Of a stretch of DNA of 32,000 nucleotides, positions 14,195-28,810 are shown in pieces. A program made the position numbers and the translations under genes. The DNA is taken from NCBI RefSeq assembly GCF_001945605.1, contig NZ_MPKA01000021.1, positions 30,001 to 62,000 on the forward strand, written 5' to 3'. The stretch's first letter is position 1; the number at the start of each line of letters is the position of its first letter. This DNA comes from Dubosiella newyorkensis (GTDB taxonomy: Bacteria; Bacillota_I; Bacilli_A; Erysipelotrichales; Erysipelotrichaceae). The notes under the pieces are model-generated. The model was not told the origin of the DNA. It searched no databases and saw only the letters and a list, made by a program, of their open reading frames with translations.

Positions 14195-14224
14195 ATAAAA
14201 AAAGGATGCTTGTGAACATCCTTT
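14195..14224 (-). terminator. Rho-independent terminator after the hexapeptide transferase gene
   Basis: Minus-strand AAAGGATGTTCACAAGCATCCTTT hairpin followed by T-run TTTTTAT; it overlaps the stop codon. Confidence 0.7.
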
Positions 14225-14879
14225 ACTTTTCTTTGATCACGATTTCTTCTTGGCTTTTGAAGATCGTGTGTTCTGGAACTTGACCGCGTACTCGAGAAAG
14301 TGGATACACATTCGTATTTCTTCCGATGATCGTTCCTGGATTCAAAACACTATTGCAGCCCACTTCGACATGATCGCCCAACATGGCTCCCATTTTTTTC
14401 AATCCCGTTTTGATTTCCTCTTTCCCATTTTTCATCACTACAAGAGTTTTATCCGATTTTACATTGGATGTAATAGAACCAGCCCCCATATGAGAATAAT
14501 ACCCAAGAATGCTGTCGCCTACATAATTATAATGCGGTGTCTGTACATGATCGAATAAGATCACGTTTTTCAATTCTACCGAATTGCCGACCACGCAGTC
14601 AGCCCCCACTAAGGCACTCCCTCGAATAAAAGCGCAATGGCGAACCTCCGTGTTCGGACCGATAATACAAGGCGCTCCTAGAAAAGCGGTTGGCGCGATC
14701 TTAGCGCTAGGATGGACCCAAACATGCTCCTGAACTTCTTCATAGTCTTCGAGCGTTTTTCCTAGATCCAAAATGAGCTGCTTGATTCCTGCAAGCGCTT
14801 GCCATGGGTAGGTGAATTGTTGAAGATACTCTTTTGCGAGAGTGTGGTTTAAATCGAATAAATCATTGATCGTATACAT
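14223..14879 (-). CDS. Left-handed beta-helix (hexapeptide-repeat) transferase family protein
   Basis: 218 aa. Hexapeptide-like imperfect repeats run through GAPCIIGPNTEVRHCAFIRGSALVGADCVVGNSVELKNVILFD and GDHVEVGCNSVLNPGTIIG. The start shares one base with the PP2C stop (TAATG). Confidence 0.7.
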   Translation of the reverse strand: MYTINDLFDLNHTLAKEYLQQFTYPWQALAGIKQLILDLGKTLEDYEEVQEHVWVHPSAKIAPTAFLGAPCIIGPNTEVRHCAFIRGSALVGADCVVGNSVELKNVILFDHVQTPHYNYVGDSILGYYSHMGAGSITSNVKSDKTLVVMKNGKEEIKTGLKKMGAMLGDHVEVGCNSVLNPGTIIGRNTNVYPLSRVRGQVPEHTIFKSQEEIVIKEK

Positions 14880-16069
14880 TATTGTTCCTCTTTCTTTTGT
14901 TCTTCGAGCGACATGAGAGAGCGTACGAAGCGCCCATTCGCTTCGTCTAAGCTATGTTGCGCGTCTTTGCATGCGTTGACTTGTTTGGAATGCAGCATTT
15001 CCAGCGCATCCAAGTTTTTACGGAGCTCGATTTTTTCTTCTTGGAGAGCCTCGATTTCTTTTTCGATCTTTTGAACACGCGATTCGAGCTTGCCTTTTTC
15101 CATGTCAAAATGTTTTTTTGCGTTCTTTTCGTGATGGAGCCTGTTTTCAGCGGATTTTAACCGATCCATATTATGTGCGACCTGTACATAATGTTCGAGT
15201 TCTTTTTTGACCGCTTCGATCTTGCTTGGATCGATCCAGCCCGCTAAACTCGTATCGTCTTTGCTTCCCCGCTTCGAGATCTCAGGAAGAAGATGAGCGA
15301 AATAGCTTTGGATCTTTTCTTGATCGAGATCTTTGATCTCTAAACAAAGCTCGCCAAAAAAGGCTTGCAGATGAATAAGATCTTGGAACGATTTATCGAT
15401 CCCGTCGCTCGCGATCATGATCGCGACCGGATCGGCTTGTCTTCGATCGATCCATACATAGCGCATTCGTCTGCTCGCATCCTTGTCGCATAAAGAAGTA
15501 GTGATATTACGAATACATAAAGCATCGTCAGGCATTGGTTGGTATAAAAAGCCGTTTTGATCCACGCAAATACAGACCCCATCCCCTTGTTGGAGGATCA
15601 AAATATAGTTTTCGGTGATCAAAGCGCTTAGAAGAGTTGTTCCATAAATATTGGTCAAATACATTCCCTTTTGATAAATGGAAGAGAGCGTCTGGGCTCT
15701 TTGATACTCTTCTTCCCGGATCGGGAACGCTTGAATATCCGCATAGACATATTGATTCCAATTGTCGACGATATCTTGAATCAAAGAACGAATCAGCGCT
15801 TCACGGTCTTCCTCGTTCTGAAGCACATGATCAAGATCGTATTTGTCCACAGTTTGTGCAAAGAGCTTTAGATTTTGGATCGCGACATCGACTGCCAAGC
15901 TCGATCCTACTTCGCTTCTAAAGCATTCTCGCGCTCCATGTCCATCGGCGATCGCGATGATTTGATATGGATCATTCTGCCAAAGATCGACGGAATCTTC
16001 GTTCGCGAGATCCATTTGGATATGTTTATATCCCGTTGTCGTATGCGCAAAAAGGGTGTTCTTATTCAC
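14879..16069 (-). CDS. PP2C-family Ser/Thr phosphatase domain protein with C-terminal coiled coil
   Basis: 396 aa. NEDS...IIAIADGHGA and IASDGIDK metal-site motifs indicate the PP2C_2-type fold. The last ~100 aa are heptad-rich (KIEKEIEALQEEKIELRKNLDALE). GTG start at 16069 with AAGGA 8 nt upstream. Confidence 0.75.
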   Translation of the reverse strand: MNKNTLFAHTTTGYKHIQMDLANEDSVDLWQNDPYQIIAIADGHGARECFRSEVGSSLAVDVAIQNLKLFAQTVDKYDLDHVLQNEEDREALIRSLIQDIVDNWNQYVYADIQAFPIREEEYQRAQTLSSIYQKGMYLTNIYGTTLLSALITENYILILQQGDGVCICVDQNGFLYQPMPDDALCIRNITTSLCDKDASRRMRYVWIDRRQADPVAIMIASDGIDKSFQDLIHLQAFFGELCLEIKDLDQEKIQSYFAHLLPEISKRGSKDDTSLAGWIDPSKIEAVKKELEHYVQVAHNMDRLKSAENRLHHEKNAKKHFDMEKGKLESRVQKIEKEIEALQEEKIELRKNLDALEMLHSKQVNACKDAQHSLDEANGRFVRSLMSLEEQKKEEQ

Positions 16070-16154: not shown

Positions 16155-16186
16155 AACAAAAAAAGCACTTTTTTTTCAGTGCTTTT
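16155..16186 (-). terminator. Rho-independent terminator closing the T7SS-like operon
   Basis: Minus-strand AAAGCACTGAAAAAAAAGTGCTTT hairpin followed by TTTTGTT; it overlaps the lipoprotein TGA stop. Confidence 0.7.
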
Positions 16187-16832
16187 CATTCGTATTTTCA
16201 ATATTATTGATTTTCCATTGTCCATCTTCTTGTTTTAGAGTGAACTTTAGATTTGTTTCAGTGTCTGGAAGATCCTCTAACGACTTTGTCATATTCCCGA
16301 AAACGAGCGCAGAAAGATCTTTATAGAGCTTCGCCTCCAATTCCTCTTGGGTATGTTCGGTCGCATACGCTTCTAAGCTTTCAGCATTTTCTTCCATATA
16401 CGTTTGGACGCTGTTCATCAATTCCGTCTGCAAGGAATTCACATCGAAGGCTTCGCTGTCCTTTCCTTTTAACGTGATCAGAGCCGTAGCTTCCTTATTA
16501 TCGATCTGAGTGGAGTCGATCTTATATTGATCAAAGGTCTTATTCATAAAAGCGCTCACGAATTTTCGAGCCTCTTTGTCAAAATCCTCTCCTAGATCCA
16601 TGTTGACGAGCTGATCATCGAGCTGTTCATAAAACGCGGTGAGATTCATGCTCACATCCGCATCCTCAGAAAGGAGGGCGTCCGCCTCTTTATAGTCTCC
16701 ATTTTTACAATCGGTCAAATAAGACTGCACGACTTCTTGAACCGCTTTTTGTTCCTCTTCTTGATTGGAGCATGCGCTCAAAGTAATGATCATAGCAAAA
16801 AACAATAAACACGATAACAATCTCTTTCCCAT
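16176..16832 (-). CDS. Lipoprotein of unknown function (last gene of the T7SS-like operon; candidate immunity/accessory protein)
   Basis: 218 aa. Signal peptide with lipobox LSAC; acidic soluble domain. AAGAGGT SD. Confidence 0.7.
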   Translation of the reverse strand: MGKRLLSCLLFFAMIITLSACSNQEEEQKAVQEVVQSYLTDCKNGDYKEADALLSEDADVSMNLTAFYEQLDDQLVNMDLGEDFDKEARKFVSAFMNKTFDQYKIDSTQIDNKEATALITLKGKDSEAFDVNSLQTELMNSVQTYMEENAESLEAYATEHTQEELEAKLYKDLSALVFGNMTKSLEDLPDTETNLKFTLKQEDGQWKINNIENTNEKH

Positions 16833-16868
16833 ACTGTACCTCTTTTCGAGCTCAGTATAGCATAGTTT

Positions 16869-17153
16869 TTAACGGTTCCGGCCAACTTTTTCATATTCTT
16901 CTTCCAAAACAAAGCGGAAATTGAATTCTTCTTCGTTTTGAAGGCCAATATAATAAAGAACACGGATATCTTTATGATCGAACAAATACATTTTTGTCGA
17001 ATCGATCATCCCTTCCGGCCACAATACGGCAGCATAATCATAGATCTTGCCACTTTCCTTGCTTCTTTGAAAACGACCGATGATCATGATCTTCTTATCC
17101 CCATTCTTTAATGTGACGACACTCCCTAAAGGTAATAATTCTGGCATCTTCAT
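16869..17153 (-). CDS. DUF4176-family protein (T7SS-associated)
   Basis: 94 aa. The LPLGSVVTLKNGDKKIMIIGRFQ...YDYAAVLWPEGMIDSTKMYLFDHKDIRVLYYIG pattern matches DUF4176 as I know it from Firmicute Ess loci. Strong AAAGGAGGAAG SD. Confidence 0.75.
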   Translation of the reverse strand: MKMPELLPLGSVVTLKNGDKKIMIIGRFQRSKESGKIYDYAAVLWPEGMIDSTKMYLFDHKDIRVLYYIGLQNEEEFNFRFVLEEEYEKVGRNR

Positions 17154-17169
17154 CGTCTTCCTCCTTTCA

Positions 17170-17982
17170 TTAATATTTGATGTTGATCTTCCAGCCTAGA
17201 CCTGCGATAAAGCCAAGCTTACTCCCAAATTCCCATTCCCGGTTTTTATGCGAATAGCTCACATCCGCTCCTGCGCTCATTAAAGAAGCGCTGCCAGATA
17301 ACGTGATCGTCGCTCCAAACAAATGAAAGCCTAACTCCGCTTCTCCTTCCAAAGCCGCAACATGACCTGAAAGCTTTAAGGTTTGCTCTTTTGCGCTCAG
17401 ACACACTTGGCCGACTGCTTTCGCGCTTCCTACATTGACGCTCGCTTTGCTTGTTGCATACACTTTTCCTTTCCCTAGCTTCGCATGGCTTGTTAAAGAA
17501 AGGAGCGAAAGCGAAATCTGTCCACGCAGATCTAAGGACGGATCGAATTTCTTATCGTTCCAGATCCCTAACTCAAATTCACCTTCCACTTTCGCATTCC
17601 CTACATTCGCTTCTAAGCTATGCGATAGAAATTCATTCGAGTATTTATTTTCAACTTGCATATAGTGGATGGAGGCGCTCGCTTCACCTTCGATCGGTCG
17701 GCCCCCTTTGCGAAGCAAAGAAGACATATGCGGATCAAACGAGGCGCTCGTGCCCGTCTTGAACACGTTCGAGCTCACGCTCACTTTAGGAAGCGATCTT
17801 CCTTCAAGCGCTTCCGCTTCATTTGCAATCGTTAAAAAATATTGTCTTAAGCGCTCGATTGCCGCCAAGATTTCTTGATGCCTTTGAGCTAGAGAAGGAT
17901 GCAGAAAATAAAGATAGGTCCGCACTTGATGGATTTGGCTTGCGAATTGTCTAGAAGAGTTTGTCTCGATATCCAAGAGCAT
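17170..17982 (-). CDS. Hypothetical protein with a helical N-terminus and a Gly/Ala/Ser-rich beta-repeat C-terminus; candidate T7SS cargo
   Basis: 270 aa. Residues 1-60 are predicted helical. The rest has repeating units (ANVGNAKVEGEFELG, ASVNVGSAKAVGQV, GHVAALEGEAELGFHLFG, GSASLMSAGADVSYS, GSKLGFIAGLGWKINIKY). It has no signal peptide. Start ATG with GGAG 4 nt upstream. No family recognised. Confidence 0.55.
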   Translation of the reverse strand: MLLDIETNSSRQFASQIHQVRTYLYFLHPSLAQRHQEILAAIERLRQYFLTIANEAEALEGRSLPKVSVSSNVFKTGTSASFDPHMSSLLRKGGRPIEGEASASIHYMQVENKYSNEFLSHSLEANVGNAKVEGEFELGIWNDKKFDPSLDLRGQISLSLLSLTSHAKLGKGKVYATSKASVNVGSAKAVGQVCLSAKEQTLKLSGHVAALEGEAELGFHLFGATITLSGSASLMSAGADVSYSHKNREWEFGSKLGFIAGLGWKINIKY

Positions 17983-18139
17983 CCATCTCCTGTCTTTGTA
18001 ACACGATCAAGCCTTGGATCTTAGCGAACGATTTCGATACATACCATCGCTCATTATCGCTTAAAAAACTAGGAATCGATTGAGCGAGCCGATCCAGCTG
18101 ATTGGCCATTTGATCATAGACAAAATATCCCCTATGCAT
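17951..18139 (-). CDS. Small helical protein (62 aa), possible chaperone/targeting partner or 5' part of the next gene
   Basis: The ATG at 18139 overlaps the upstream WXG stop (ATGCATAG). The ORF-track start at 18181 would overlap the WXG gene by 50 nt. The 3' end overlaps the 270-aa ORF by 32 nt. Confidence 0.4.
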   Translation of the reverse strand: MHRGYFVYDQMANQLDRLAQSIPSFLSDNERWYVSKSFAKIQGLIVLQRQEMDALGYRDKLF

Positions 18140-18422
18140 GGAAAGCATTCTCCATGATCGTTTCATTTTCCTCGTAAGCAAGGGCTGTCTGGCTTAAATA
18201 ATTCGCGTGATTTTCGATTGTCTGCACATAGGTGTCAAACACTGGATGCAGTCTAGAAAACTCTTCCATCAATCTTGAGGAAGCCGGCGAAGTCCAAAAC
18301 GATTGAACGTCGTGCATTTTAGCTTCGATTGAGAGAAAGATCGCGTTCATCTCTTGTTCCATATTTTTGAGCTGGGCTGCGTATTGTTGTAGATCGGCCG
18401 CGCTGATTTTTAATTGTGACAT
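18132..18422 (-). CDS. WXG100-like small helical protein (W-T-S variant)
   Basis: 96 aa with a predicted helix-turn-helix. The central SFWTSPAS occupies the WXG position. Same length as, and adjacent to, the canonical WXG100 gene. Confidence 0.7.
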   Translation of the reverse strand: MSQLKISAADLQQYAAQLKNMEQEMNAIFLSIEAKMHDVQSFWTSPASSRLMEEFSRLHPVFDTYVQTIENHANYLSQTALAYEENETIMENAFHA

Positions 18423-18437
18423 CGTTTTCTTTCCTTT

Positions 18438-18728
18438 CTACAGATTCCTTGCTTGAGCAAGACGATTTTGTTGGAGCTGTTCATAACTCGAAGCGCATGT
18501 CTTCAACACATCGCTATAAGACTGTATAACGTAGACTAACTTTTTTAGCTCTGGCTGAAGCGCTTGAACGTGTTCAATAAAAGCATCGTTGTCGCTTCCC
18601 GACCATATAGAAGAGGTTGAAAGCATGTGCTGATTGATCCTTTGGATCATAGATTCGTACTCCAAAGCTTGGCTCGCTAAGCTTTGGCCCGCTTGATGAA
18701 GTTCTTGATAGTTGACTTTGATATTCAT
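18438..18728 (-). CDS. esxA: WXG100-family protein (EsxA-like)
   Basis: 96 aa. Central SIWSGSDNDAF contains W-S-G. The N-terminal VNYQELHQAG and C-terminal YEQLQQNRLAQARNL are typical of WXG100 helical hairpins. GAAAGGG SD. Confidence 0.8.
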   Translation of the reverse strand: MNIKVNYQELHQAGQSLASQALEYESMIQRINQHMLSTSSIWSGSDNDAFIEHVQALQPELKKLVYVIQSYSDVLKTCASSYEQLQQNRLAQARNL

Positions 18729-18737
18729 AGTACCCTT

Positions 18738-18959
18738 TCAATAGACGATCAAATGATCGCCATGCTGCACGACTTCTTCATGAAATGAAGAATACAAGAT
18801 TTGAGTCGTCTCTAAAACGACTACATTTTTAAAAACCGATGTCTCATAGAGACGATTCCATTCAAGAAGAAAGTGCTGGATCTTTAGCTTTGGATCGATC
18901 AAAACAAGCTGATATTCTTGTTCATAGACGCACTTGATCCACACATAGAGCTCATTCAT
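18738..18959 (-). CDS. YukD/EsaB-like ubiquitin-fold protein
   Basis: 73 aa, in the position directly adjacent to essC. The C-terminal HGDHLIVY resembles the GDxLxI(L) terminus of YukD/EsaB. The start overlaps the essC-like stop (ATGAATGA). Confidence 0.6.
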   Translation of the reverse strand: MNELYVWIKCVYEQEYQLVLIDPKLKIQHFLLEWNRLYETSVFKNVVVLETTQILYSSFHEEVVQHGDHLIVY

Positions 18960-21900
18960 AAATATGAAGACATGCTCCGCAATCGATCGACTCCTCTTGA
19001 AACAAGATCATTTCATACGGTTCTAAGATCGATCGCTTATGAAATGTATACGCATAGTCATTGAAGCCAGCTCCAAACCAAGCTAGATCCATGTTTTCGA
19101 CCAATTTCGTATCCAAAAGCGTTCCCTCTTGGATCTGGATGATCGAAACGTCCGCCCTTTCATCGATTCTGCCAACACAAATGTCCAGGACCGGATCTTG
19201 AGCGCGCCAGATCTGCATCAAATAGAACAGATCCTCTTCTTTTTTTGCTTGAGCATAGGCGATCAAGAGCGGTCGCTTACGCTGCCATACGAGAGGAAGA
19301 CAATCGCTTCCATAGCCCAGCACGTAGCTGGAGAAATAGTTCTTCGCCTGGGAAAGCGTAAACATTTGATCGATTTGAGGATACGGCGCGGCAAGGCTGT
19401 TTTGGTTTTCAGCTTGGCTCCAGATCCCGCTGCAGATCGTCTGTTTATACGCTAGATTCATCATTGGAAACTCCTTTCTAGAGATCTTATAGGTTTGCAT
19501 GAAGGCGCGAGCGTGATCGATATCATAAAACGAGGACAAGATCCGGTATGTGAACAATCGATAAAGCTCTTCGTTTCGCGCTTCGTACGAGGAAGTCAAG
19601 CAATATATTTTTAAGAACGGAATATTAACGATTCGTTCTACGTCTTTTGTGCCAAATACGACCAGCGTGGCTCGTTTCTTCTCCTTGAGCAAAAAATAGA
19701 GCGATTTCCATTCAAAGTTTTTGTGCAGGATATAGACATCTGTTTCATGTGCGCAAATCGAATCGACGATCTTTTCTTGCGCTTCATGACATAAAATCAG
19801 AGCCGATTGTCCATAGGTCAGCTTCGCTTCATAGACTTTTTTTTGCTTCGGCCAATCCAATAGCCAAAGCGAAGAAAAGGAACATTCGCCTAACATCGGC
19901 ATTACGATCGATATAGAGTCTTCTTGGCGCGCCTCGACTTTCTTTCTGACCCAGTTAAGAAGGCTTTCTTGTTTGAGGTCTTGATTTACGTAGCGGATCG
20001 AATCGAGACAAGACGAAGATGAATGGATATAAAAACTTCTTCCTTTCACTTCCTTGTCCCGACTTCCTTCTTGAAGAATAAATTCTCCGGCACGATTTAA
20101 ACGACTCGCCCCCTCATGCATGAGCATTTCCCGGGAGTCGGCTGCTGTGTGTACTTTTAAACAGATCCGATATTTAGAATTGCTCACGATTTGTTCATCC
20201 ACGATCCCAGCTGGCTTTTGCGTCGCCAGGATCAAATGGATCCCTAAGGAACGGCCAATGCGAGCAAATTCCTTCAAATCGCTCATCGCATCGGGGAAAC
20301 GAGATTTTAATTGAGCGAACTCATCGACTACGATCCATAAATGGGCCATTTTATTTCCTTGTTCTCGATACGCATGAATATTGGCCGGCTTCCCGCTCTC
20401 TTCTTGAAAACGTGCCAACGCGACTTGCCTTTCCTCGATCTCTGCTTGCAAGGAAAGTAGAAAGCGTTCCATCCCCTCTGTCTCAAGATTGGTGATCTTT
20501 CCAGCGCAATGCGGAAATCCATAAAAAGCCTGACCGAAAGCGCCTCCCTTGAAATCGATCAAAATATATTGGAAATCCAAGGAAGAATACGTGTAGGTAC
20601 CAAAAAGAAGGAGGCTGGAGATGAATTCAGATTTTCCCGAACCGGTGGTTCCCGCGATCAATAGATGCCCTTCCTGCAGATCGATCCAAATAAGTTTTCC
20701 TTTTTCAAGACCAACCGGAAACGAGTATGAACGGTTGGAAGAGCGAATATAGGCGTCTTTGATCGAGTCGTTCAACGGCAGAACGTCTCTAGCGTGTGTT
20801 TTTTTTTGAAGGAAGAAAGGTCTAGAGATGATGGAATCAAAAGGAAACTCGCTCTTTTTTAAAGAACAATACAGAAGGGTCCAATGTTCTTCTTGACAAA
20901 ATCGTTCATCGAGAAGCGCTTCATCACTAGTCACGATCCAATACGATTCTGTTTTGGATAAAAGGATAGTCGCTTGTTCATAAGATCGTATCGAAAGATA
21001 ACCCTCCTCGATGCAGAAGGAATCTAAAACCGAATAGGCAGGTTCTCTTTCTAAAAACACCCATTTGCTCGTCCGATTCGAAAGCGTGGAAAGATGATCG
21101 AACAAAGGCTCGATTTTTTCGCATTGGATCCAGACGCTTTGGCCTTTTTGAATTTCGCGAAAGATCGGAAGCTTCAAGTCAAGCTGGAGCAGCTGTTCTT
21201 TAGCATACGAGTACAACGGATCGTTTCGAGTTTGATAATTGACCTTCGGAAGACTTGGAAGAGAAAGAGGGATCCATTCAATTTGGATCGGGATCGTTTC
21301 TTGTTCAAGAGGATAGAGAGATAATTCTTCTTTAAAAGAATCGAAAGATTGTATGTATTGATGGAACGCTTTTTGGATTTCTTGGATCCTTTCTTCGATA
21401 TAGTTCTGGTACATCGTATTACGATGTTCTTCTTGTTGTTTTCGCTTCCGTTTTTGAAGGCGGACGTTGAAGAATCCAAGGCTCAAAAAGGAAAATGACA
21501 TGAGAAGTGTCGTGATCGACGAAAGAAGGATCGATGTGATCGTTTGTTTTTGAGCGAACACTTGGATCAAGATAGAGATCGTTGTCGAGAGAAAGATCAT
21601 GATTGAAGGCGCGATCGATTGGATCAGGGAAATCGATTCAGACTCTATCTTTTGAAGAAAAGCTTCAAGAGGAGAAAAAGAAGGAAGTACAGGAGGCGAG
21701 ATCGTCTGCTTCATAGGGATCGATTGAATCGTCAATGTGGAGAAAAGCTCTTTGGGATCCTTGAAAGAAAGATCGCTGATCAAAAATTTTGGATAATAAA
21801 AGATTGTGTGGATCGCAAAACAAATTTGATCGCCTTCATGAAGAGGTACGTTATGAACCACTCGTTTGCCATTGACATACGTTCCGTTTTTAGAATAATC

Positions 21901-22131
21901 GTAAAGAATTCCATTTTCGATCGTGAAATGGAGCAACGAGATCGTAGGATCGAGTTCGCAAAAGCTTTCTCGACCAATTTCGATTCGGTGTTCGAAAGCG
22001 CACAGAAAGAAAGATTCTACTTTTTTTTGATAGGAATAAGTGGTCGGTTCGGGTAGTTTTGTTTTTGATTTAGTATGGGTGCGATAGTATACCGTATGAA
22101 TGTCGTTGTTTATTTGCCCCAATTTATCCAT
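18952..22131 (-). CDS. essC: EssC-like FtsK/SpoIIIE-family T7SS ATPase, short form (one FHA, two TM, one intact P-loop)
   Basis: 1059 aa. N-terminal FHA (IEIGRES..ISLLHF..SKNGTYVNGKRV). Two TM helices (SIAPSIMIFLSTTISILIQVF, ILLSSITTLLMSFSFLSLGFF). Walker A LLIAGTTGSGKSEF and Walker B HLWIVVDEFAQL, with an IHLILATQKP block. There is no second or third Walker A. Confidence 0.85.
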   Translation of the reverse strand: MDKLGQINNDIHTVYYRTHTKSKTKLPEPTTYSYQKKVESFFLCAFEHRIEIGRESFCELDPTISLLHFTIENGILYDYSKNGTYVNGKRVVHNVPLHEGDQICFAIHTIFYYPKFLISDLSFKDPKELFSTLTIQSIPMKQTISPPVLPSFSPLEAFLQKIESESISLIQSIAPSIMIFLSTTISILIQVFAQKQTITSILLSSITTLLMSFSFLSLGFFNVRLQKRKRKQQEEHRNTMYQNYIEERIQEIQKAFHQYIQSFDSFKEELSLYPLEQETIPIQIEWIPLSLPSLPKVNYQTRNDPLYSYAKEQLLQLDLKLPIFREIQKGQSVWIQCEKIEPLFDHLSTLSNRTSKWVFLEREPAYSVLDSFCIEEGYLSIRSYEQATILLSKTESYWIVTSDEALLDERFCQEEHWTLLYCSLKKSEFPFDSIISRPFFLQKKTHARDVLPLNDSIKDAYIRSSNRSYSFPVGLEKGKLIWIDLQEGHLLIAGTTGSGKSEFISSLLLFGTYTYSSLDFQYILIDFKGGAFGQAFYGFPHCAGKITNLETEGMERFLLSLQAEIEERQVALARFQEESGKPANIHAYREQGNKMAHLWIVVDEFAQLKSRFPDAMSDLKEFARIGRSLGIHLILATQKPAGIVDEQIVSNSKYRICLKVHTAADSREMLMHEGASRLNRAGEFILQEGSRDKEVKGRSFYIHSSSSCLDSIRYVNQDLKQESLLNWVRKKVEARQEDSISIVMPMLGECSFSSLWLLDWPKQKKVYEAKLTYGQSALILCHEAQEKIVDSICAHETDVYILHKNFEWKSLYFLLKEKKRATLVVFGTKDVERIVNIPFLKIYCLTSSYEARNEELYRLFTYRILSSFYDIDHARAFMQTYKISRKEFPMMNLAYKQTICSGIWSQAENQNSLAAPYPQIDQMFTLSQAKNYFSSYVLGYGSDCLPLVWQRKRPLLIAYAQAKKEEDLFYLMQIWRAQDPVLDICVGRIDERADVSIIQIQEGTLLDTKLVENMDLAWFGAGFNDYAYTFHKRSILEPYEMILFQEESIDCGACLHIYE

Positions 22132-23537
22132 GTTCTAAACCAAGTGAAGAATGATTCGAAGGCGGCTTGCACTTGTTCCTTCCAAGTTGGTTTTCTTAGA
22201 ATCAAGTTTTTCGAAACCACTTCTGTCGTTTTGTCATCATCATAGGTGACTTTGATCGTATTTTTAGCTTTCTTTGCCTTCACTTCAATATAAGGCGAGT
22301 TTATCGTGTCATATTGAATGTCCTCCTTTTGAATCACTTGATCGTTCCACTTCACGTTTTTGATTTCCTTCCCTTCTTTATAAGGTAAACGGACGCGGAG
22401 AGTCTTAGCCCCGTCTCCATCCTCGATCCGCTCCATTTTTTGATCAAAAAATAGAATCTCTTGTTTCGGTTCTGTTTTGTTCGGGATCTCTAGGAGCTTT
22501 TGAGGAATTTTGGGTTTTTGAACAGACGGGGGAGTCAAAACAAGGGGTGCAATCTTCGGTTTTTCGATCGAATCCTCTTTTACGATGGGCAGATATTCGG
22601 ATTGTGGTGTTTCTTGCACGATTGGTTCTGGAATCGTTGGACGTTGTTCAAGAGGAAGAATGAATAGCCGTTGAGAAGATGTCCAAGTATTTCCATCCAT
22701 ATCGATCATTTCTATTTGTATATCGAATTCCTGGGATTCTGTCGTTGCTGGCAATGGAATCGAGAGCATATCCGAATACACTCGCTCATTGATTTTTACT
22801 TGAAAAGATTGAGGTGTTTGGCTTGTTTGAACGAATAATCGATCGTTTTCCCAATCGATGCTCGCATCCAGAGGGATAGGATCATAGCTGAGATTGATCC
22901 ACTCGACTTCTTCAAGCAAATGCTTGGAGCGCAGTGTAAAAGAATTGATTCCATTTTCAAGCGTGGTCGTTTCCTCTTTGATCGGGTTTCCATTCTTCAA
23001 GATTTCAAGATCCTCTTGCTGCGTGATCGATATATTGTTTCCAGTCTGTTCATAGTCCGGAAAAATGAGAGGCCTGATCTCGAGAATCTTACTGCTTTCA
23101 TTCCCGGCTTGATCTTTCAAATGCCATCGGACTGTTTTCATTTCTGGCTCGACGATCAATTCGTCGTTTTCATAAAGCACATCGTCGATATAGATCGCAC
23201 ACTCTTTCAGATCCGTATCTAAGATCGAATATGGAAGCGAAGTAGAACGATTTATATAAAGATAATCTTGGACGGGTAAAATAAGTTGAGGAGCCGATCG
23301 ATCGCCAGTGATCGTTTGCACACCTTGTTCAAGGAGCTGATCTTGTTTGTCTTTGAGTAAAAATTCGAGTTCGAATGTTTGTGAAAGATGGATATCGATC
23401 CAATCTTGATCCCATTCTTTTCCATTGATCAAGATTTGACTTTTTTCGCGATCGACTTTTTCATGAAATTTTAGATCGATCCTTTCTTCACTCGTTTCGA
23501 CTTCAATATACGTTGGTGGTGGAAGTGTTGGTTGCAT
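22110..23537 (-). CDS. Hypothetical beta-rich protein with Pro-rich linker and Trp-rich C-terminal amphipathic helix
   Basis: I trimmed the ORF to the ATG at 23537 (AAGGAGGT SD 6 nt upstream), giving 475 aa. No signal peptide or TM segment. Pro/Lys/Glu linker (PLEQRPTIPEPIVQETPQ...KPKIAPLVLTPPSVQKPKIPQK). The C-terminus is WKEQVQAAFESFFTWFRTWINWGK. No family recognised. Confidence 0.6.
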   Translation of the reverse strand: MQPTLPPPTYIEVETSEERIDLKFHEKVDREKSQILINGKEWDQDWIDIHLSQTFELEFLLKDKQDQLLEQGVQTITGDRSAPQLILPVQDYLYINRSTSLPYSILDTDLKECAIYIDDVLYENDELIVEPEMKTVRWHLKDQAGNESSKILEIRPLIFPDYEQTGNNISITQQEDLEILKNGNPIKEETTTLENGINSFTLRSKHLLEEVEWINLSYDPIPLDASIDWENDRLFVQTSQTPQSFQVKINERVYSDMLSIPLPATTESQEFDIQIEMIDMDGNTWTSSQRLFILPLEQRPTIPEPIVQETPQSEYLPIVKEDSIEKPKIAPLVLTPPSVQKPKIPQKLLEIPNKTEPKQEILFFDQKMERIEDGDGAKTLRVRLPYKEGKEIKNVKWNDQVIQKEDIQYDTINSPYIEVKAKKAKNTIKVTYDDDKTTEVVSKNLILRKPTWKEQVQAAFESFFTWFRTWINWGK

Positions 23538-23548
23538 AATTACCTCCT

Positions 23549-24787
23549 TCATGCAAATTCGGATGTAAAGAGCTGGAGCTGATCGCAAAGATCGATCAAT
23601 TCTCGCCCTTCTTCATCCATCGTTTGGATTCTATCAAATGCGTCTGGTAGATACGTTTCTTTTTCCATGCTCGCGTACAATAAGATCAATTGAATATATC
23701 GCTTGATTGCTCGATCATGGACCTCTATTTTTTGGGCAAGTTCTTTTTGTTGATCGATTGATAAAACGATTTGATGTTCGATGCATATTTCGATCAAACG
23801 AATGAGATCATCTTCTTGCCCGAGCTCTTTTAAAAGAAGAAAGAGTTCACTGGGTTCGAAATCTTCATCTTTCCCTGCCTGCCATTTTAAAAATAAGACG
23901 TTTTGGGCATCGATCGAATGGGTGTCGATTTTTTCCAACCAATATCGGCAAAGGAGCGGATCTTTTGTACGGATCACTTCGTTTGTGAAATAGTTTTGTT
24001 CTTTTTCTTCAAGAAGGGATCGTTCGAGCTTTCCTTCTTCGATCCAGTGATAGAGCGGACGTCCTTGAGCGATATATTGATCAATCAAATTCCGCGGCTG
24101 AAATTGGCACAGTCCAAAAAACAAGACAGACAGAAGAAGGAACAGTGCCAAGATCTTTATTTTATTTCGACGTTGTTTATAACGCTTGCGGATCGCGTTG
24201 GTGCTCGTAAACTGCTTTTTGATCCAGGATCGTTGAACGATTTGATAAAAAAGCGGGCTAGCATAGGCTAGATCGTCTTTTATCGACTTTAAAGCCTTCG
24301 ATTGGGAGGGAAGTTCTTGAGAGAAAACATAAATGGAAGAAGTTTTGGAAGGAATACAGCCATTGAAATCGATCAGTACAGGACTTCCATTCAAAACGAG
24401 TACATTGGAGGGTTTCCAATCGATATATAAGTACCCTGTTTGATGGAACGAATCGATCGCATCGAGCAATTCTAAAAGAAATCGGATCCGCGTTTTATAG
24501 GCTGGATTTTTTTCGAGCCACGTTTCGAGCGACTGGCCTTCGATCTTTTCTTCAATGATCGCAAGTGTGTTTTGTTCTTCGATCACATCGATCAAATGCG
24601 GATAATAGACACCTCTAAGTCTCGACAAGATTTCGATCTCCTGCAAATATTGATGCCTTAAGACAGGATCTTCTGTTTTGAGCATCGTTTTTTTTATCAA
24701 TTCATTGCCTGTTTTTTCATCTTCTACGATCTCGACTTTTGAAAAATTCGTAAAGCAAACGATTTCTTTCGTTTTATAGCGGTTCAT
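23549..24787 (-). CDS. EssB-position single-pass membrane protein with N-terminal protein-kinase-like domain
   Basis: About 412 aa from the ATG at 24787; a TTG at 24811 is an alternative start. Kinase-like strings are IIEEKIEGQSLETWL, YLYIDWKPSNVLV and VLIDFNGC. One TM (ILALFLLLSVLFFGLCQF) lies near residue 220, followed by a helical C-terminal domain. This is the EssB/YukC topology. Confidence 0.65.
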   Translation of the reverse strand: MNRYKTKEIVCFTNFSKVEIVEDEKTGNELIKKTMLKTEDPVLRHQYLQEIEILSRLRGVYYPHLIDVIEEQNTLAIIEEKIEGQSLETWLEKNPAYKTRIRFLLELLDAIDSFHQTGYLYIDWKPSNVLVLNGSPVLIDFNGCIPSKTSSIYVFSQELPSQSKALKSIKDDLAYASPLFYQIVQRSWIKKQFTSTNAIRKRYKQRRNKIKILALFLLLSVLFFGLCQFQPRNLIDQYIAQGRPLYHWIEEGKLERSLLEEKEQNYFTNEVIRTKDPLLCRYWLEKIDTHSIDAQNVLFLKWQAGKDEDFEPSELFLLLKELGQEDDLIRLIEICIEHQIVLSIDQQKELAQKIEVHDRAIKRYIQLILLYASMEKETYLPDAFDRIQTMDEEGRELIDLCDQLQLFTSEFA

Positions 24788-25742
24788 GAAATTCAAGCTG
24801 CTTGTTCCCAAAGACGATCTTCATTCCATTCTTTAAGCGCATCTTACGGATAACGCGCTTCTCGCCAAGAAACGTTCCATTCGCGGACTTGAGATCTTGA
24901 AGATAATACCGTTCGTTGGTTTTCGTGATCTTAGCGTGTTTTAATGAGACGCTCGCTTCTTGTAGGCGTATTTCACAGCTCATCGCTCTACCCACTATCA
25001 TTTGTTCGAACATTAATTCGTATCGATCTTGGCCATCATACAAATATGCGCTTGTCTCTTGTTGAGGATGAAAAAGGATTTGAGTATGTTCGAATTCTGG
25101 TGTTCTAGCTTCTTCTTCTATAAATTCGATCGCTCGAGAACAATACGTTCCAATTTCTTCGCGAGCGATAAAACCGCTTTCACGCTTTTGAAGGTGATAC
25201 CACTTCTTTGGAAAGTATTTTTTTTGAAGCATCTTCAAGCCAATGATCACATTGGGGATGGAAAATTCTTTTTGGCGCAGGCTTTGATATAAATAGCCGC
25301 TAATTTCATAGGCGCTGTTCGTTCGATAGCGTCTTGCAAGATCTTGGATGAATTCTTTGCATTCATCATGGCGGTACATCCAGCAGTCGAGCTGCAAAGG
25401 CAAAACGATAAATCCAAACTCTGTACCCTTTGAAGACACATAGATCGATTCTGTATCGAGAAGAACAGGCTTGTTCCGATTGACATTGATCGCTCTTTCT
25501 AATAGATCGATCAAAAAACAATAGCCTTCCTCTTCTTGAAAAATATATTGCTCCAAAAAATAAGAGAGCGGAACCAAATTTTGAAAAGAATAAGAGAGAA
25601 TATTGGCCTCTAGGTTCGCCTCGATGCAATAGGCATCGGATCGGATCTTCTCAAGGATCGATGGATCGATCATTTCTTTTTGTTTGAGATGAATATAAAG
25701 TGTTTGATCGCGTTCAATTTTTTTGAGAATTTGTTCTTTCAT
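24774..25742 (-). CDS. FHA-domain protein with N-terminal domain of unknown function (first gene of the operon)
   Basis: 322 aa. C-terminal FHA with the canonical triad (MIVGRAMS, SVSLKHA, SANGTFLGEKRV). The N-terminal ~230 aa are unassigned. AAGGGG SD. Confidence 0.8.
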   Translation of the reverse strand: MKEQILKKIERDQTLYIHLKQKEMIDPSILEKIRSDAYCIEANLEANILSYSFQNLVPLSYFLEQYIFQEEEGYCFLIDLLERAINVNRNKPVLLDTESIYVSSKGTEFGFIVLPLQLDCWMYRHDECKEFIQDLARRYRTNSAYEISGYLYQSLRQKEFSIPNVIIGLKMLQKKYFPKKWYHLQKRESGFIAREEIGTYCSRAIEFIEEEARTPEFEHTQILFHPQQETSAYLYDGQDRYELMFEQMIVGRAMSCEIRLQEASVSLKHAKITKTNERYYLQDLKSANGTFLGEKRVIRKMRLKNGMKIVFGNKQLEFHEPL

Positions 25743-25996
25743 AACGTCCCCTTTCTATGTGCCTCTTATTAAATACGACAAAAATTCAAAAAATGGTCCC
25801 AATTTCTAAAATTTTTTTATTTTTTTGTCTTATGCATACGTACCTATTTATTAATCTATATCTTATATGTTATTAAAATATATTTTTTTCATATAATGTA
25901 TAGACAAATAAAAAGAATTCGTATATTATGAAGACGTAAAAAATGTATACCCTTTCAACTAGGATCCATTGGAAGGAAAGAATAAGGAGAGAATTT

Positions 25997-27298
25997 ATGA
26001 AAAATTTGGATCGCTTTACCGAACCTTTGATCGAATTCGGTGCGAAACTTAACAACTTTAAACCTTTAGAGATTCTTCGCGACGCCTTCATGCTTGCGTT
26101 CCCGCTTACGATTTTTGGTTCGATCACGTTGATCATCGCCAATTTCCCATTCTTATCTCAATTGATCGGAGAAACGAATGCCGCAACATTGAATACGATG
26201 CTTGGGCCTGCTTCGACAGCAACGATGAGTATCGCAGCCGTCTTCCTATGCATGGGTATTGGGTATTATTATTCAAAATCAAAAGATTGTGATCCAATTT
26301 TTGGAGCCGCGATCGCACTTGCAGCCTTCTTGCTTGTCACTCCAATGTTCATGAATGTAGATTTGGAAAGCGGTGAGCAGCTTCTTGTCAGCAACGTCTT
26401 CAATATCGACCGCTTAGGTGCAAGAGGAATGTTCGTCGCTATGATCGGTTCTTATCTTGCCGCCTTCATGTATTGCTGGGTTACAGAGAAAAACTGGACG
26501 ATCAAGATGCCTAGTTCCGTACCTCCTGCTGTTTCGAAATCATTCTCTGCATTGATTCCTGCTGTATTGACATTGACTGTCTTCTTATTGATCCGCATTG
26601 GTTTTGAATTCACGCCTTGGGGCAACGTGCATGATTTTATTTACCAAGTCGTTCAAGCGCCATTGACAAATTTGGGAAAAGGTCTTGGTGCTACGATCTT
26701 AGCGATCTTATGTATCCAGCTTTTATGGTTCTTTGGTTTGCATGGACAAATCATCGTCAACTCTGTGCTCGATCCAATCTGGAACACATTGACACTTCAA
26801 AACTTGGAAGCTTTCCAAGCAGGAACTCCAATTCCGAACATCGTAACAAAGCAATTCATCGAAATCTTCACTGTAGGTATTGGTGGTTCTGGTATGACAT
26901 TGGCTGTCGTGATCATCTTGATGTTCTTCTGTAAGTCGCAACAATTGAAACAAATTGGTCGCTTAGCAGCGCCTGCTGGCATCTTCAACGTCAACGAACC
27001 CGTCATCTTTGGTATGCCGATCGTAATGAATCCTATGATCTTCATCCCGTGGATCGTAGCGCCAGTCATCAACGTGATCATCGTTTACTTCGCAATGTCT
27101 TCAGGACTTGTACCATATACAACAGGAATCACCGTTCCTTGGACGACGCCGATCTTCTTGTCTGGATGTCTAGCGACAAACTCTGTAATGGGTGGAGTGA
27201 TCCAGCTAGTCGAACTCGTTGTGGTCGGAATTTGCTGGTTCCCATTCTTGAAGGCTTTGGATCGTCAAAACGTCAAATTAGAAGAAGAAGCAGAATAA
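25997..27298 (+). CDS. PTS lactose/cellobiose-family EIIC permease (orphan: no EIIA/EIIB nearby)
   Basis: Start moved to the ATG at 25997 (AAGGAGA 6 nt upstream), giving 433 aa. MKNLDRFTEPLIEFGAKL..LEILRDAFMLAFPLTIFGS and FGLHGQIIVNSVLDPIW..NEPVIFGMPIVMNP blocks are typical of CelB/LicC-type EIIC. Confidence 0.85.
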   Translation: MKNLDRFTEPLIEFGAKLNNFKPLEILRDAFMLAFPLTIFGSITLIIANFPFLSQLIGETNAATLNTMLGPASTATMSIAAVFLCMGIGYYYSKSKDCDPIFGAAIALAAFLLVTPMFMNVDLESGEQLLVSNVFNIDRLGARGMFVAMIGSYLAAFMYCWVTEKNWTIKMPSSVPPAVSKSFSALIPAVLTLTVFLLIRIGFEFTPWGNVHDFIYQVVQAPLTNLGKGLGATILAILCIQLLWFFGLHGQIIVNSVLDPIWNTLTLQNLEAFQAGTPIPNIVTKQFIEIFTVGIGGSGMTLAVVIILMFFCKSQQLKQIGRLAAPAGIFNVNEPVIFGMPIVMNPMIFIPWIVAPVINVIIVYFAMSSGLVPYTTGITVPWTTPIFLSGCLATNSVMGGVIQLVELVVVGICWFPFLKALDRQNVKLEEEAE

Positions 27299-27299
27299 A

Positions 27300-28205
27300 A
27301 TGACCTCAGTTGTTTGCTTTGATATCGGAGGAACCGCAATTAAATATGGCTTGATCCAAGATGGAACGATCATCGATCAAGGAAAATTTGCAACAGACTT
27401 AACGAATGGATCGCTCATGTTGAGCCGCATGGGCGATATCATTCAAGACTACAAAAAAGCTCATGAGCTAGATGGGATTTCCATCAGCTCCCCAGGCTTT
27501 GTAGATAATCGATCCGGCATGATCATTTCGGGAAACATCATTGACGGATTCAACGGACTCAATATCCGGGATTACTTTCAAAAACATTACCAATTAGATA
27601 CAGCTATCGAAAACGATGCCAACTCGGCTACGATCGCCGAACACGCTTTAGGCAACGGAAAAGGCTATGAGAACATGGTTTGCATGACGTTGGGTACAGG
27701 TGTTGGCGGTGGTATCATCATCAACAATAAGCTTTATACCGGAAACGCGAAAATGGCTGGAGAATTTGGTTTCATGTTCATCAACGGCATTCAAACGGAT
27801 CGCCCAGAAGATGAGATCCTTTCTGGCTACGCGTCGACAAGAGCGCTTGTCGAATCCGTGAATAAAGAACTCGAAGAAGAGATCGACGGGATCGAGGTTT
27901 TTGATCGCGCCAATCGTGGAGATGCTTTGTGCAAGCAAAAAACTTCCGATTTCTTCGATGCGATCGCGATGGGCATCTACAACATTGCCTATACGATCAA
28001 TCCTGATATCGTTTTGATCGGTGGAGCTGTTTCCATGCAGCCTCAGCTCATCGATGAAGTTAAAAAGCGGATCGAATACTTAACACCATCTTTTTCTCTC
28101 AACTTACTGGATATTATGAAGATCGATCGCTGCAAATTCTTAAACGATGCAGGACTCTATGGAGCCTATGCCAACTTTATAGAGTCAAGAAAAGTCGAAG
28201 CGTAG
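27300..28205 (+). CDS. ROK-family sugar kinase
   Basis: 301 aa. N-terminal ATP motif VCFDIGGTAIKYG. ROK signature CMTLGTGVGGGIIINNKLYTGNAKMAGEFG. The ATG lies 1 nt after the EIIC TAA stop. Confidence 0.85.
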   Translation: MTSVVCFDIGGTAIKYGLIQDGTIIDQGKFATDLTNGSLMLSRMGDIIQDYKKAHELDGISISSPGFVDNRSGMIISGNIIDGFNGLNIRDYFQKHYQLDTAIENDANSATIAEHALGNGKGYENMVCMTLGTGVGGGIIINNKLYTGNAKMAGEFGFMFINGIQTDRPEDEILSGYASTRALVESVNKELEEEIDGIEVFDRANRGDALCKQKTSDFFDAIAMGIYNIAYTINPDIVLIGGAVSMQPQLIDEVKKRIEYLTPSFSLNLLDIMKIDRCKFLNDAGLYGAYANFIESRKVEA

Positions 28206-28223
28206 TCTTCGGCTTTTTTTTTT
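28194..28223 (+). terminator. Rho-independent terminator of the EIIC-ROK operon
   Basis: GTCGAAGCGTAGTCTTCGGC hairpin (7 bp including one G.U pair) followed by T10; it overlaps the TAG stop. Confidence 0.75.
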
Positions 28224-28269
28224 GCGAATAGATATGTTACGATAATCAAAATTCTGCCGCCGGGTAGTG

Positions 28270-28317
28270 CTCACGTTTGTCATAAGGCCTTTGAAGACAA
28301 ACGGGAGTGTTTTTTTT
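28270..28317 (+). terminator. Second terminator-like hairpin immediately upstream of the PNPOx-gene RBS (possible attenuator)
   Basis: CTCACGTTTGTC..14-nt loop..GACAAACGGGAG followed by TGTTTTTTTT, then TAGGAGG and the ATG at 28331. Confidence 0.5.
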
Positions 28318-28330
28318 AGGAGGAAATAAA

Positions 28331-28810
28331 ATGTATCATTCAATGCGCCGTTCAAGGCAACAGCTTTCTGAACAAGAGACGATCAAGATCTTAGAAAACG
28401 CAACTTCAGGCGTGCTTGCTCTTTTCGATGCGGATGATTATACGTATGCCCTTCCCATCAGCTATGTGTACCATGGAAACGAGATCTATTTTCACAGCGC
28501 CTCTTCTGGACATAAGATCGAAGCGATCAAATATCATCAAAAAGTGTCTTTTTGCGTAGTTGCGCAAGACAAGATCGTTCCGGAAAAATTTACGACCTTT
28601 TTTAAAAGCGCGATTGTCTTTGGAACAATCGAGATCATCGAAGATGAAGCAGAAAAAAGAAAAGCGATCGAATGTCTTTCTAAAAAATATTCTCCCCATG
28701 AAACCGAGGAAAGAACTCAACAAGAGATCGATCGGTTTTGGAAGCAGCTGACGATGCTAAAGCTCAATATTGAAAAGATAAGCGGGAAACAATCGATCGA
28801 GCTTGTTTGA
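28331..28810 (+). CDS. Pyridoxamine 5'-phosphate oxidase-family (FMN-binding split-barrel, Nim-like) protein
   Basis: Start at the ATG at 28331 (AGGAGG SD), giving 159 aa. MRRSRQQLSEQETIKILENATSGVLAL...YALPISYVY.GNEIYFHSA..GHKIEAI is the typical N-terminus of PNPOx/NimA-like proteins. Confidence 0.75.
   Translation: MYHSMRRSRQQLSEQETIKILENATSGVLALFDADDYTYALPISYVYHGNEIYFHSASSGHKIEAIKYHQKVSFCVVAQDKIVPEKFTTFFKSAIVFGTIEIIEDEAEKRKAIECLSKKYSPHETEERTQQEIDRFWKQLTMLKLNIEKISGKQSIELV

Follow-up and report, generated by a model that had tools for sequence, protein, structure and literature searches.

An eleven-gene cluster of Dubosiella newyorkensis that probably encodes a reduced type VII secretion system of the kinase/FHA/phosphatase class

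We describe a cluster of eleven genes in Dubosiella newyorkensis (family Erysipelotrichaceae) that encodes the components of a putative type VII secretion system (T7SS). The cluster lies in a window of 32,000 nucleotides (nt) on contig NZ_MPKA01000021.1, and all coordinates given here are positions within this window. Eleven open reading frames (ORFs) follow each other on the minus strand from 25742 down to 16176, each at the position listed by a first-pass annotation of the same DNA (Table 1). In the direction of transcription the genes encode an FHA protein, a membrane kinase, a 475-amino-acid (aa) protein (X475), an ATPase, a 73-aa protein, two WXG100 proteins (A1 and A2), a 62-aa protein (s62), a 270-aa protein (Y270), a DUF4176 protein and a lipoprotein. 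The junctions match the earlier annotation to the letter: the genes for the 73-aa protein and the ATPase share the overlap ATGAATGA (18952-18959), those for A2 and s62 share ATGCATAG (18132-18139), the ATPase and X475 genes overlap by 22 nt (22110-22131), and the genes for the FHA protein and the kinase overlap by 14 nt (24774-24787), or by 38 nt if a TTG start is used. A further overlap of 32 nt joins the genes of s62 and Y270. The remaining intergenic gaps measure 9-36 nt, and a recognisable ribosome-binding site is found at most starts. The run ends, as had been claimed, at a terminator-like hairpin. Identical D. newyorkensis contigs show the same gene order.

Table 1. Genes and features of the cluster and its associated genes, with window positions and the evidence for each (TM, transmembrane; HMM, hidden Markov model; AF2, AlphaFold2).
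Feature	Position	Strand	Evidence
TsxJ-like cytoplasmic FHA protein, 322 aa	24774-25742	minus	Pfam FHA, residues 249-312, E 1.3e-17
TsxD-like single-pass membrane Ser/Thr kinase, 412 aa from ATG	23549-24787	minus	Pkinase, E 1.7e-14; TM helix 210-228
X475, fast-evolving protein with immunoglobulin (Ig)-like repeats, TsxI-like, 475 aa	22110-23537	minus	orthologue HMM
TsxC, short EssC-type ATPase, 1059 aa	18952-22131	minus	Pfam FtsK_SpoIIIE and FHA, NCBIfam, PDB, hhalign
TsxB candidate in YukD/EsaB position, 73 aa	18738-18959	minus	conserved in 26 loci
TsxA1, WXG100 protein	18438-18728	minus	Pfam WXG100, E 1.9e-11
TsxA2, second WXG100 paralogue	18132-18422	minus	Pfam WXG100, E 1.6e-10
s62, small protein, candidate partner of Y270, 62 aa	17951-18139	minus	same position in 26 loci and in metagenome locus L049
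Y270, candidate T7SS substrate, 270 aa	17170-17982	minus	AF2 model, profile search
DUF4176 protein, candidate chaperone of Y270, 94 aa	16869-17153	minus	Pfam DUF4176, E 7.2e-30
Lineage-specific lipoprotein, LSAC lipobox, 218 aa	16176-16832	minus	ORF and signal sequence
Intrinsic-terminator-like hairpin closing the eleven-gene unit	16187-16160	minus	10-pair stem followed by a T run
PP2C_2-family phosphatase, candidate TsxF, 396 aa	14879-16069	minus	Pfam PP2C_2, E 6.7e-31
up1, polytopic membrane protein with 5-6 TM helices, 188 aa	28811-29377	plus	HMM of 34 orthologues, E 3.7e-55

Pfam and NCBIfam agree with the identities first assigned to the FHA protein, the FtsK/SpoIIIE ATPase, the WXG100 pair and the DUF4176 protein. 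The 475-aa, 73-aa, 62-aa and 270-aa proteins match no Pfam or NCBIfam family. The reported lack of EsaA and EssA at the locus stands: neither these two families nor EssB/YukC has a Pfam or NCBIfam match on any of the eleven proteins, and Pfam-only scans of the flanking ORFs of the window found neither EsaA nor EssA.

The ATPase combines an FtsK_SpoIIIE domain (Pfam, E 3.3e-18) with an FHA domain. Among the NCBIfam models EssC scores best (263 bits), against 156 bits for EccCa, 21.6 bits for TraB and 13.5 bits for TraD; the EssC score is far under the cut-off of the EssC equivalog TIGR03928 (778 bits), which places the protein outside the full-length EssCs. The top PDB match is the D1 domain of B. 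subtilis YukB (residues 639-894), which aligns to residues 444-692 with an E-value of 5.9e-50. The layout comprises one FHA domain, two transmembrane (TM) helices, a D0-like region (residues 225-443), D1 (444-692), and a tail of 367 aa. Local hhalign comparisons with canonical EssC align the FHA domain to FHA2 (98% probability), residues 225-443 to D0 (94%), residues 444-692 to D1 (100%), and residues 693-1000, with large deletions, to D2 and the start of D3 (90%). In the family alignment the Walker A (GTTGSGKSE) and Walker B (VVDEF) motifs of D1 are invariant, and the tail contains neither motif. Family members are 1003-1268 aa long, and in 38 of 38 the tail measures 319-423 aa, compared to about 610 aa in EssC. 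A PDB profile search with the tail gave nothing significant. Judged from these alignments, members of the family have a single predicted catalytic nucleoside triphosphatase (NTPase) domain, and their C-terminal region is shrunken and degenerate. The phosphothreonine-binding positions of the FHA domain (G-R, S-x-x-H, N-G-T) are kept in nearly all of the 38 orthologues.

Searching 5.8 billion proteins returned full-length matches to four distant proteins (28-32% identity, 1089-1148 aa), whose loci have the same gene order; all other matches are confined to D1. The public records label the ATPase merely as 'FHA domain-containing' or 'FtsK/SpoIIIE domain-containing'. In a rough, unbootstrapped neighbour-joining tree of D1, the Erysipelotrichaceae proteins stand apart from all sampled full-size EssCs. 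The closest full-size D1 belongs to a protein (P0007) whose T7SSj/f-like locus encodes a TPR-kinase, a DUF6382-FHA protein, PP2C_2, YukD and WXG100.

The two WXG100 proteins, both matched above the Pfam cut-off, are related to each other (hhalign probability 98.9%) and differ in their motifs. A1 has the canonical W-x-G motif, which is kept in its orthologues; A2 has a W-x-S-P-A motif together with a C-terminal YxxxE (YEENE). By their sequences, A1 and A2 resemble a heterodimer of the EsxA/EsxB type. The 73-aa protein had been called YukD/EsaB-like. Its size and position fit this assignment, and its C-terminal GDHLIL is conserved; the similarity itself is weakly supported, with ubiquitin-like domains as top PDB profile matches (E 0.4-1, none significant) and a Pfam YukD match in two of 20 family members (E 0.039).

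The kinase occupies the place held by EssB in T7SSb, the type with which the first-pass annotation had compared the locus. That annotation described a kinase-fold, single-pass membrane protein in EssB position; the position and the single TM helix are borne out, and the family turns out to be Pkinase with catalytic residues, never YukC. Pkinase is matched by 18 of 18 orthologues, YukC/EssB and TPR by none of them (0/18 each, Pfam). The beta3 lysine, the alphaC glutamate, D-x-K-x-x-N and D-F-N are invariant or nearly so. The neighbouring FHA protein has its FHA domain in 26 of 26 orthologues and keeps G-R, S-x-x-H and N-G/K-T/S in all of them. An N-terminal DUF6382 domain is matched in 20 of the 26 (best E 3.6e-5); the window protein itself is unmatched.

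X475 finds only itself in database searches. The HMM of orthologues from outside the window recovers it with an E-value of 2e-25, and 8 of the 22 orthologues match Ig-like Pfam families, including Big_3_3. A PDB profile search with the family gave nothing significant. The window protein has neither signal peptide nor TM helix and ends in a Trp-rich amphipathic helix. Some of the orthologues (383-609 aa) start with a signal-peptide-like segment and finish in a TM helix; others resemble the window protein in lacking both and in their amphipathic C-terminal helix. With Ig-like matches in the orthologues and termini that vary, X475 seems to be related to TsxI, the Ig-like component, as a small version of uncertain topology.

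The genes of s62, Y270 and the DUF4176 protein form a module of their own. Comparison of s62 with WXG100 gave no significant similarity. For Y270 the first-pass annotation had suggested a Foldseek-type search; the AF2 model is confident (predicted local distance difference test, pLDDT, 85.5) and no PDB fold is matched significantly (best E 2.4e-3, TM-scores below 0.25). The model consists of two helices (residues 8-19 and 29-63) and eight subsequent beta strands, each 18-27 residues long and with a high content of Ser, Gly, Ala and Leu; the non-significant matches are to pore forms of MACPF proteins and to outer-membrane barrels. A profile search over 1.84 billion representatives yields a family of 566 clusters (224 at E <= 1e-10), whose beta domain invariably forms the very C-terminus and is preceded by helical N-terminal regions that differ in length. 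In a distant family member, a metagenomic protein of 731 aa (P0256), an N-terminal lipase domain (Mbeg1-like/Lipase_3) and hydrophobic segments rich in Gly and Ala are fused to this C-terminal long-beta-hairpin domain. The N-terminal hairpin of Y270 weakly resembles the WXG100 protein A2 (hhalign 70.8%), and across the wider family helix 2 is followed by a YxxxD/E motif with an invariant Glu.

The DUF4176 gene begins 16 nt past the Y270 gene. In all but one of the related loci that reach this far, DUF4176 lies directly downstream of the Y270 homologue; the exception is L041, in which DUF4176 was undetected. DUF4176 proteins are chaperones that stabilise T7SS (LXG) effectors and are encoded just downstream of their clients (PMC12482557). 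A metagenome scan for the wider Y270 family found three short loci only. A Paenibacillus locus and metagenome contigs show the order WXG100, WXG100, small protein, Y270-like protein, DUF4176, PP2C. This recurrence outside the Erysipelotrichaceae supports the view that kinase-type T7SSs have long contained s62-Y270-DUF4176 as a conserved unit, and we regard the three genes as a widely conserved candidate substrate-chaperone module.

A scan with the Y270 family over one genome per GTDB species gave 35 loci. These belong to the genera Holdemanella, Absicoccus, Faecalicoccus, Floccifex, Faecalitalea, Merdibacter, Faecalibaculum and Ileibacterium; the remaining loci are from bins that are probably mislabelled. 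For example, L015, L016 and L029 are filed as Bacteroidaceae, Segatella copri and Waltera intestinalis 'cleanbin', and are probably mis-binned contigs. A survey of synteny in related genomes, which had been proposed at first pass, shows the same order in 21 complete and several partial loci (HMM mapping): a divergent gene for a membrane protein (up1), then FHA protein, kinase, Ig-like protein, ATPase, small B protein, A1, A2, s62, Y270 and DUF4176. The gene arrangement is far beyond chance: about 35 further species of the Erysipelotrichaceae share the order, with ATPases that are only 28-32% identical. The earlier view of a distinct, intact architecture is upheld by this conservation.

Some loci depart from the common order. 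In a Merdibacter clade of eight loci, from this genus and its relatives (L028, L033, L038-L043), the set consists of up1, FHA protein, ATPase, A1, A2, Y270 and DUF4176; the ATPase of this clade is 1172-1268 aa long, with the extra residues spread over FHA, D0, D1 and tail. In Ileibacterium valens (L045, 9096-16006) A1-A2-s62-Y270-DUF4176 are followed by a convergent gene for a longer ATPase (1343 aa); FHA protein, kinase, Ig-like protein and up1 were undetected within about 9 kb upstream and 2.7 kb past the ATPase gene. Beyond DUF4176, L007 and L008 have a pair of conserved genes on the opposite strand (products of about 305 and 344 aa) and a Suf operon. The pair encodes a lipoprotein and a membrane-anchored protein with no Pfam match, and this neighbourhood looks like shared chromosomal context, not part of the system.

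Two genes outside the eleven-gene run have to be considered together with it. The up1 protein has no Pfam match and carries the UniRef label DUF998. In 34 related loci its gene adjoins the FHA-protein gene divergently. That the window has no divergent membrane gene was rejected, as up1 was found 3 kb further upstream; genes for phosphotransferase system (PTS) EIIC, ROK and PNPOx proteins (25943-28810, plus strand) separate it from the FHA gene, an insertion that appears to be specific to the Dubosiella lineage. In non-Erysipelotrichaceae loci with Y270, three of which are short contigs, up1 was undetected. The role of up1 may be that of a core membrane subunit or of an immunity factor. The second gene encodes the PP2C phosphatase, which carries about 120 aa of additional coiled coil at its C-terminus. 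The gene lies 106 nt past the lipoprotein gene, beyond the terminator, with a promoter-like site at 16137-16108, and overlaps the gene of a hexapeptide-repeat (LbH) transferase by 1 nt (the pair spans 14223-16069, minus strand). PP2C also follows DUF4176 in the non-Erysipelotrichaceae loci L047 and L049, and the gene order of the Paenibacillus locus and the metagenome contigs supports the position downstream of DUF4176 in Dubosiella as the ancestral one.

Taken as a whole, the locus probably encodes a complete and functional T7SS of the kinase/FHA/phosphatase class, in a reduced form specific to the Erysipelotrichaceae; we put the probability of this reading, including the phospho-switch and the export proposed below, at roughly three in four. 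The T7SS identity is supported by EssC as the best model for the ATPase, YukB D1 as the best PDB match, the two WXG100 proteins and DUF4176; the class by a Pkinase with catalytic residues, a DUF6382+FHA protein and a nearby PP2C. The same order across species at this low ATPase identity, together with the invariant Walker motifs of D1, argues that the system is not decayed.

As a working model, the kinase would phosphorylate itself or a partner on threonine, and the FHA domains of the ATPase and the FHA protein would dock on the phosphothreonine, leading to assembly or activation of the ATPase channel. PP2C, where present, would reset this switch, a logic resembling the control of the type VI secretion system (T6SS) by PpkA/PppA/Fha1. 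The A1/A2 heterodimer would be exported, with Y270 as a conserved co-substrate whose N-terminal hairpin, perhaps completed by s62, may serve as targeting signal. DUF4176 would keep the beta domain of Y270 in the cytoplasm before export and then stay behind. Outside the cell, the beta-hairpin domain might act on membrane or envelope as a pore or conduit; this is the least certain step.

Several observations weigh against this reading or parts of it. The cassette of the Merdibacter clade lacks the kinase and the Ig-like protein, and B was undetected there, so that the kinase is dispensable in some lineages. The kinase has no glycine-rich loop and, in the window, a reduced C-lobe, and its activity is therefore not assured. 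That PP2C is a constant component was set aside as unlikely, since the 10-kb surroundings of the other Erysipelotrichaceae loci searched contain no such gene (absent from 39 of 39 related loci, L007-L045). Given this absence, its place behind the terminator and its translational coupling to an unrelated transferase, PP2C may not belong to the secretion system. The domain assignment of the ATPase tail comes from a single hhalign match (90% probability), and the AF2 model of this region (residues 680-1059, alignment of five sequences) has a pLDDT of 41.8 and reveals an alpha/beta pattern only. The Tyr of the YxxxE motif is replaced in the window Y270 (AEALE). The strands of Y270 are weakly amphipathic, so that membrane insertion is not evident. 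Finally, the C-terminal end of Y270 hardly varies from genus to genus and the gene keeps a fixed position; with this conservation, unlike that of polymorphic toxins, Y270 could be a structural part instead of cargo.

Variants of the T7SS that include a membrane kinase, FHA proteins and a PP2C phosphatase have been published as T7SSc-j (Garrett, Higginson & Palmer 2024, microLife, PMC11217815), where TsxD, TsxJ, TsxF and an FHA-bearing TsxC are described and a parallel with the control of T6SS by threonine phosphorylation is drawn. An architecture other than T7SSb is therefore not new in itself. The label 'T7SSb-like' chosen at first pass proved misleading, as the active-site-bearing kinase, the DUF6382+FHA protein and PP2C point to the T7SSc-j class. 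With T7SSb the locus shares an EssC-type ATPase with FHA and two TM helices, a WXG100 substrate, a small protein in YukD position, a kinase-fold single-pass protein upstream of the ATPase and a DUF4176 chaperone beside a substrate. It differs by the missing EsaA, EssA and YukC/EssB-family proteins, by catalytic kinase residues and FHA phosphothreonine residues that are kept here and lost in T7SSb, by two WXG100 paralogues in place of a homodimer, and by an ATPase score of 263 bits against the 778-bit cut-off.

The closest published system appears to be T7SSe. Shared with it are two non-identical WXG100 proteins, a single-TM Ser/Thr kinase with conserved active site, an N-terminal FHA domain with phosphothreonine motif on the ATPase, a DUF6382+FHA protein and, less certainly, a small B protein and an Ig-like-repeat protein. 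A PPM/PP2C phosphatase may be shared as well; it is limited here to the Dubosiella lineage and is a constant component in T7SSe. The ATPase, by contrast, is about 30% shorter than that of T7SSe and has one FHA domain and a degenerate tail in place of D2 and D3: every TsxC is said to have four NTPase domains (PMC11217815), whereas here D0 and D1 are recognised and the tail has no P-loop. TseK of T7SSe is a zinc-ribbon-like single-TM protein (PMC11217815); the 9-36-nt gaps leave no room for TseH or TseK, and the cluster contains no small single-TM ORF. The Ig-like protein is 3-4 times smaller than its T7SSe counterpart TseI, a large protein with signal peptide and TM helix, and in Dubosiella has neither of the two. 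The fixed s62-Y270-DUF4176 module and the divergent DUF998-like membrane protein are additions.

With T7SSj and T7SSf (example locus L046) the likeness lies in the D1 domain of the ATPase, which is most similar to that of P0007. TsjD of T7SSj has a TPR tail, which the kinase family described here lacks (0/18 orthologues); both T7SSj and T7SSf have a single core WXG100 protein and ATPases of about 1500 aa, compared to two WXG100 proteins here, and T7SSf has no kinase and includes a TadZ-like ATPase. The locus thus appears nearest to T7SSe and partly to T7SSj, and is set apart from both by their published descriptions. In the PpkA-PppA-Fha1/TagH control of T6SS, too, the genes of the secretion machine are accompanied by those for a membrane Ser/Thr kinase, a PP2C phosphatase and an FHA adaptor. 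The analogy is regulatory only, as the apparatus is unrelated, and here FHA is also fused to the motor ATPase. The LXG + Lap + DUF4176 modules of T7SSb share with s62-Y270-DUF4176 a small upstream partner, an N-terminal helical targeting region and the downstream DUF4176. They differ in that the module described here has no LXG domain, a helical region of about 60 aa, a fixed position directly after the core WXG100 pair and, where those modules carry a polymorphic toxin, a C-terminal domain with a conserved fold of long beta hairpins.

These likenesses raise the question of whether the locus is simply a member of published T7SSe or T7SSj, with nothing new except the host family. The shared inventory of WXG100 pair, B, FHA-ATPase, single-TM kinase, DUF6382+FHA protein, PPM phosphatase and Ig-like protein, and the best full-size D1 match in a T7SSj/f-like locus, speak for it. 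We nevertheless consider this distinctly unlikely: the ATPases of 1003-1268 aa with degenerate tails contrast with four NTPase domains, TseH and TseK have no place, the kinase lacks the TsjD-type TPR tail, the D1 domains stand apart in the rough tree, and the Ig-like proteins, often without signal peptide or TM helix, are small next to TsdI (1654 aa, PMC11217815). Neither PMC11217815 nor its supplements contain Erysipelotrichaceae names, the supplementary files giving accessions without organisms, and a literature search found no paper tying a T7SS to Erysipelotrichaceae or Dubosiella. The points that go beyond PMC11217815, found here in a major family of gut commensals, are that the ATPase is short, that Y270 and DUF4176 form a fixed module and that a membrane protein is encoded divergently. 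The bolder reading goes in the opposite direction and takes the locus as an undescribed T7SS subtype ('T7SSk') of gut Erysipelotrichaceae, in which the ATPase has lost D2-D3 substrate recognition and Y270, from a new family of all-beta long-hairpin proteins, is the constant cargo and assembles after export into a pore or envelope conduit. If true, exported Y270 would replace EsaA or the large Ig-like TsxI proteins, and no T7SS would have had a core substrate of beta structure before it; we regard this combination as rather doubtful.

A somewhat more plausible alternative, still on the unlikely side, is that Y270 and DUF4176 constitute an antibacterial pore-forming toxin with up1, or here the lipoprotein, as immunity factor, the cassette being mainly an interbacterial weapon. 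DUF4176 is known to partner toxin domains, including that of a pore-forming LXG toxin (PMC12482557), in Foldseek the long beta hairpins, rich in Ser, Gly and Ala, faintly recall the pore forms of MACPF proteins and gasdermin, one member of the Y270 family is fused to a lipase, and a polytopic membrane protein is always present with the cassette. Yet the near-invariant C-terminus and fixed position of Y270 are unlike those of polymorphic toxins, the Foldseek matches are not significant and the strands show no clearly hydrophobic face. The up1 gene, moreover, is at the far end of the cassette, not beside Y270, and was undetected in the Y270 loci outside the family (three of them short contigs). 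A silent or decaying T7SSb remnant that lost esaA, essA and part of essC would account for the short degenerate tail and for the missing EsaA, EssA and EssB families, but is very improbable in view of intact ORFs, coupled starts, ribosome-binding sites and an architecture with invariant catalytic motifs kept in about 35 species. Most remote is the reading of the ATPase as a conjugative DNA translocase (TraB/TcpA) within a transfer module of a mobile element, to which weak TrwB_AAD_bind and TraB matches (Pfam/NCBIfam) might point. EssC and EccC models score about 10-fold higher, YukB is the top match in the PDB, the neighbouring genes include the WXG100 pair and DUF4176, and the flanks are housekeeping genes with no relaxase, integrase or GC island. 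The HMM ranking (EssC 263 versus TraB 21.6 bits) together with the YukB D1 match effectively refutes this reading, and the first-pass assignment of the ATPase to the side of EssC holds. That annotation missed the abnormal D2-D3 region, the Ig-like family of the 475-aa protein, the s62/Y270/DUF4176 module, up1 and PP2C.

The genes around the cluster encode housekeeping functions (PTS EIIC, ROK, PNPOx, ABC transporters, FemAB, iPGM and PFK). Pfam scans show neither relaxase nor integrase among the flank annotations, and the base composition of the window gives no genomic island signal. The lipoprotein, the last gene ahead of the terminator, has a signal peptide with the lipobox noted earlier, weak Pfam matches only and the source label DUF5105; it is absent from all other loci mapped by HMM, in line with the earlier annotation as far as its identity goes and found in no other species. 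Both the lipoprotein and up1 carry uninformative labels such as 'hypothetical' in the public records of this species. A MucBP-domain surface protein (662 aa, 12169-14157) is encoded beyond the PP2C and transferase genes. About 4 kb downstream of the cluster lies the gene for a 247-aa membrane protein with zinc ribbon, GYF_2 and DUF4234 (11356-12099, minus strand), whose likeness to TseK of T7SSe is maybe coincidental.

Dubosiella, Holdemanella, Faecalibaculum, Absicoccus and Merdibacter belong to the abundant commensals of the gut and are under study for their effects on the host, and D. newyorkensis itself is a mouse-gut bacterium. As a compact T7SS whose ATPase has one catalytic domain, the system would offer a natural minimal version and could show which EssC domains are needed for export. 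With the key residues of kinase and FHA domains kept, the proposed control of T7SS by phosphothreonine becomes testable in cultivable strains. The Y270 family, finally, is an uncharacterised candidate T7SS substrate whose predicted fold differs from the helical cargo known so far.

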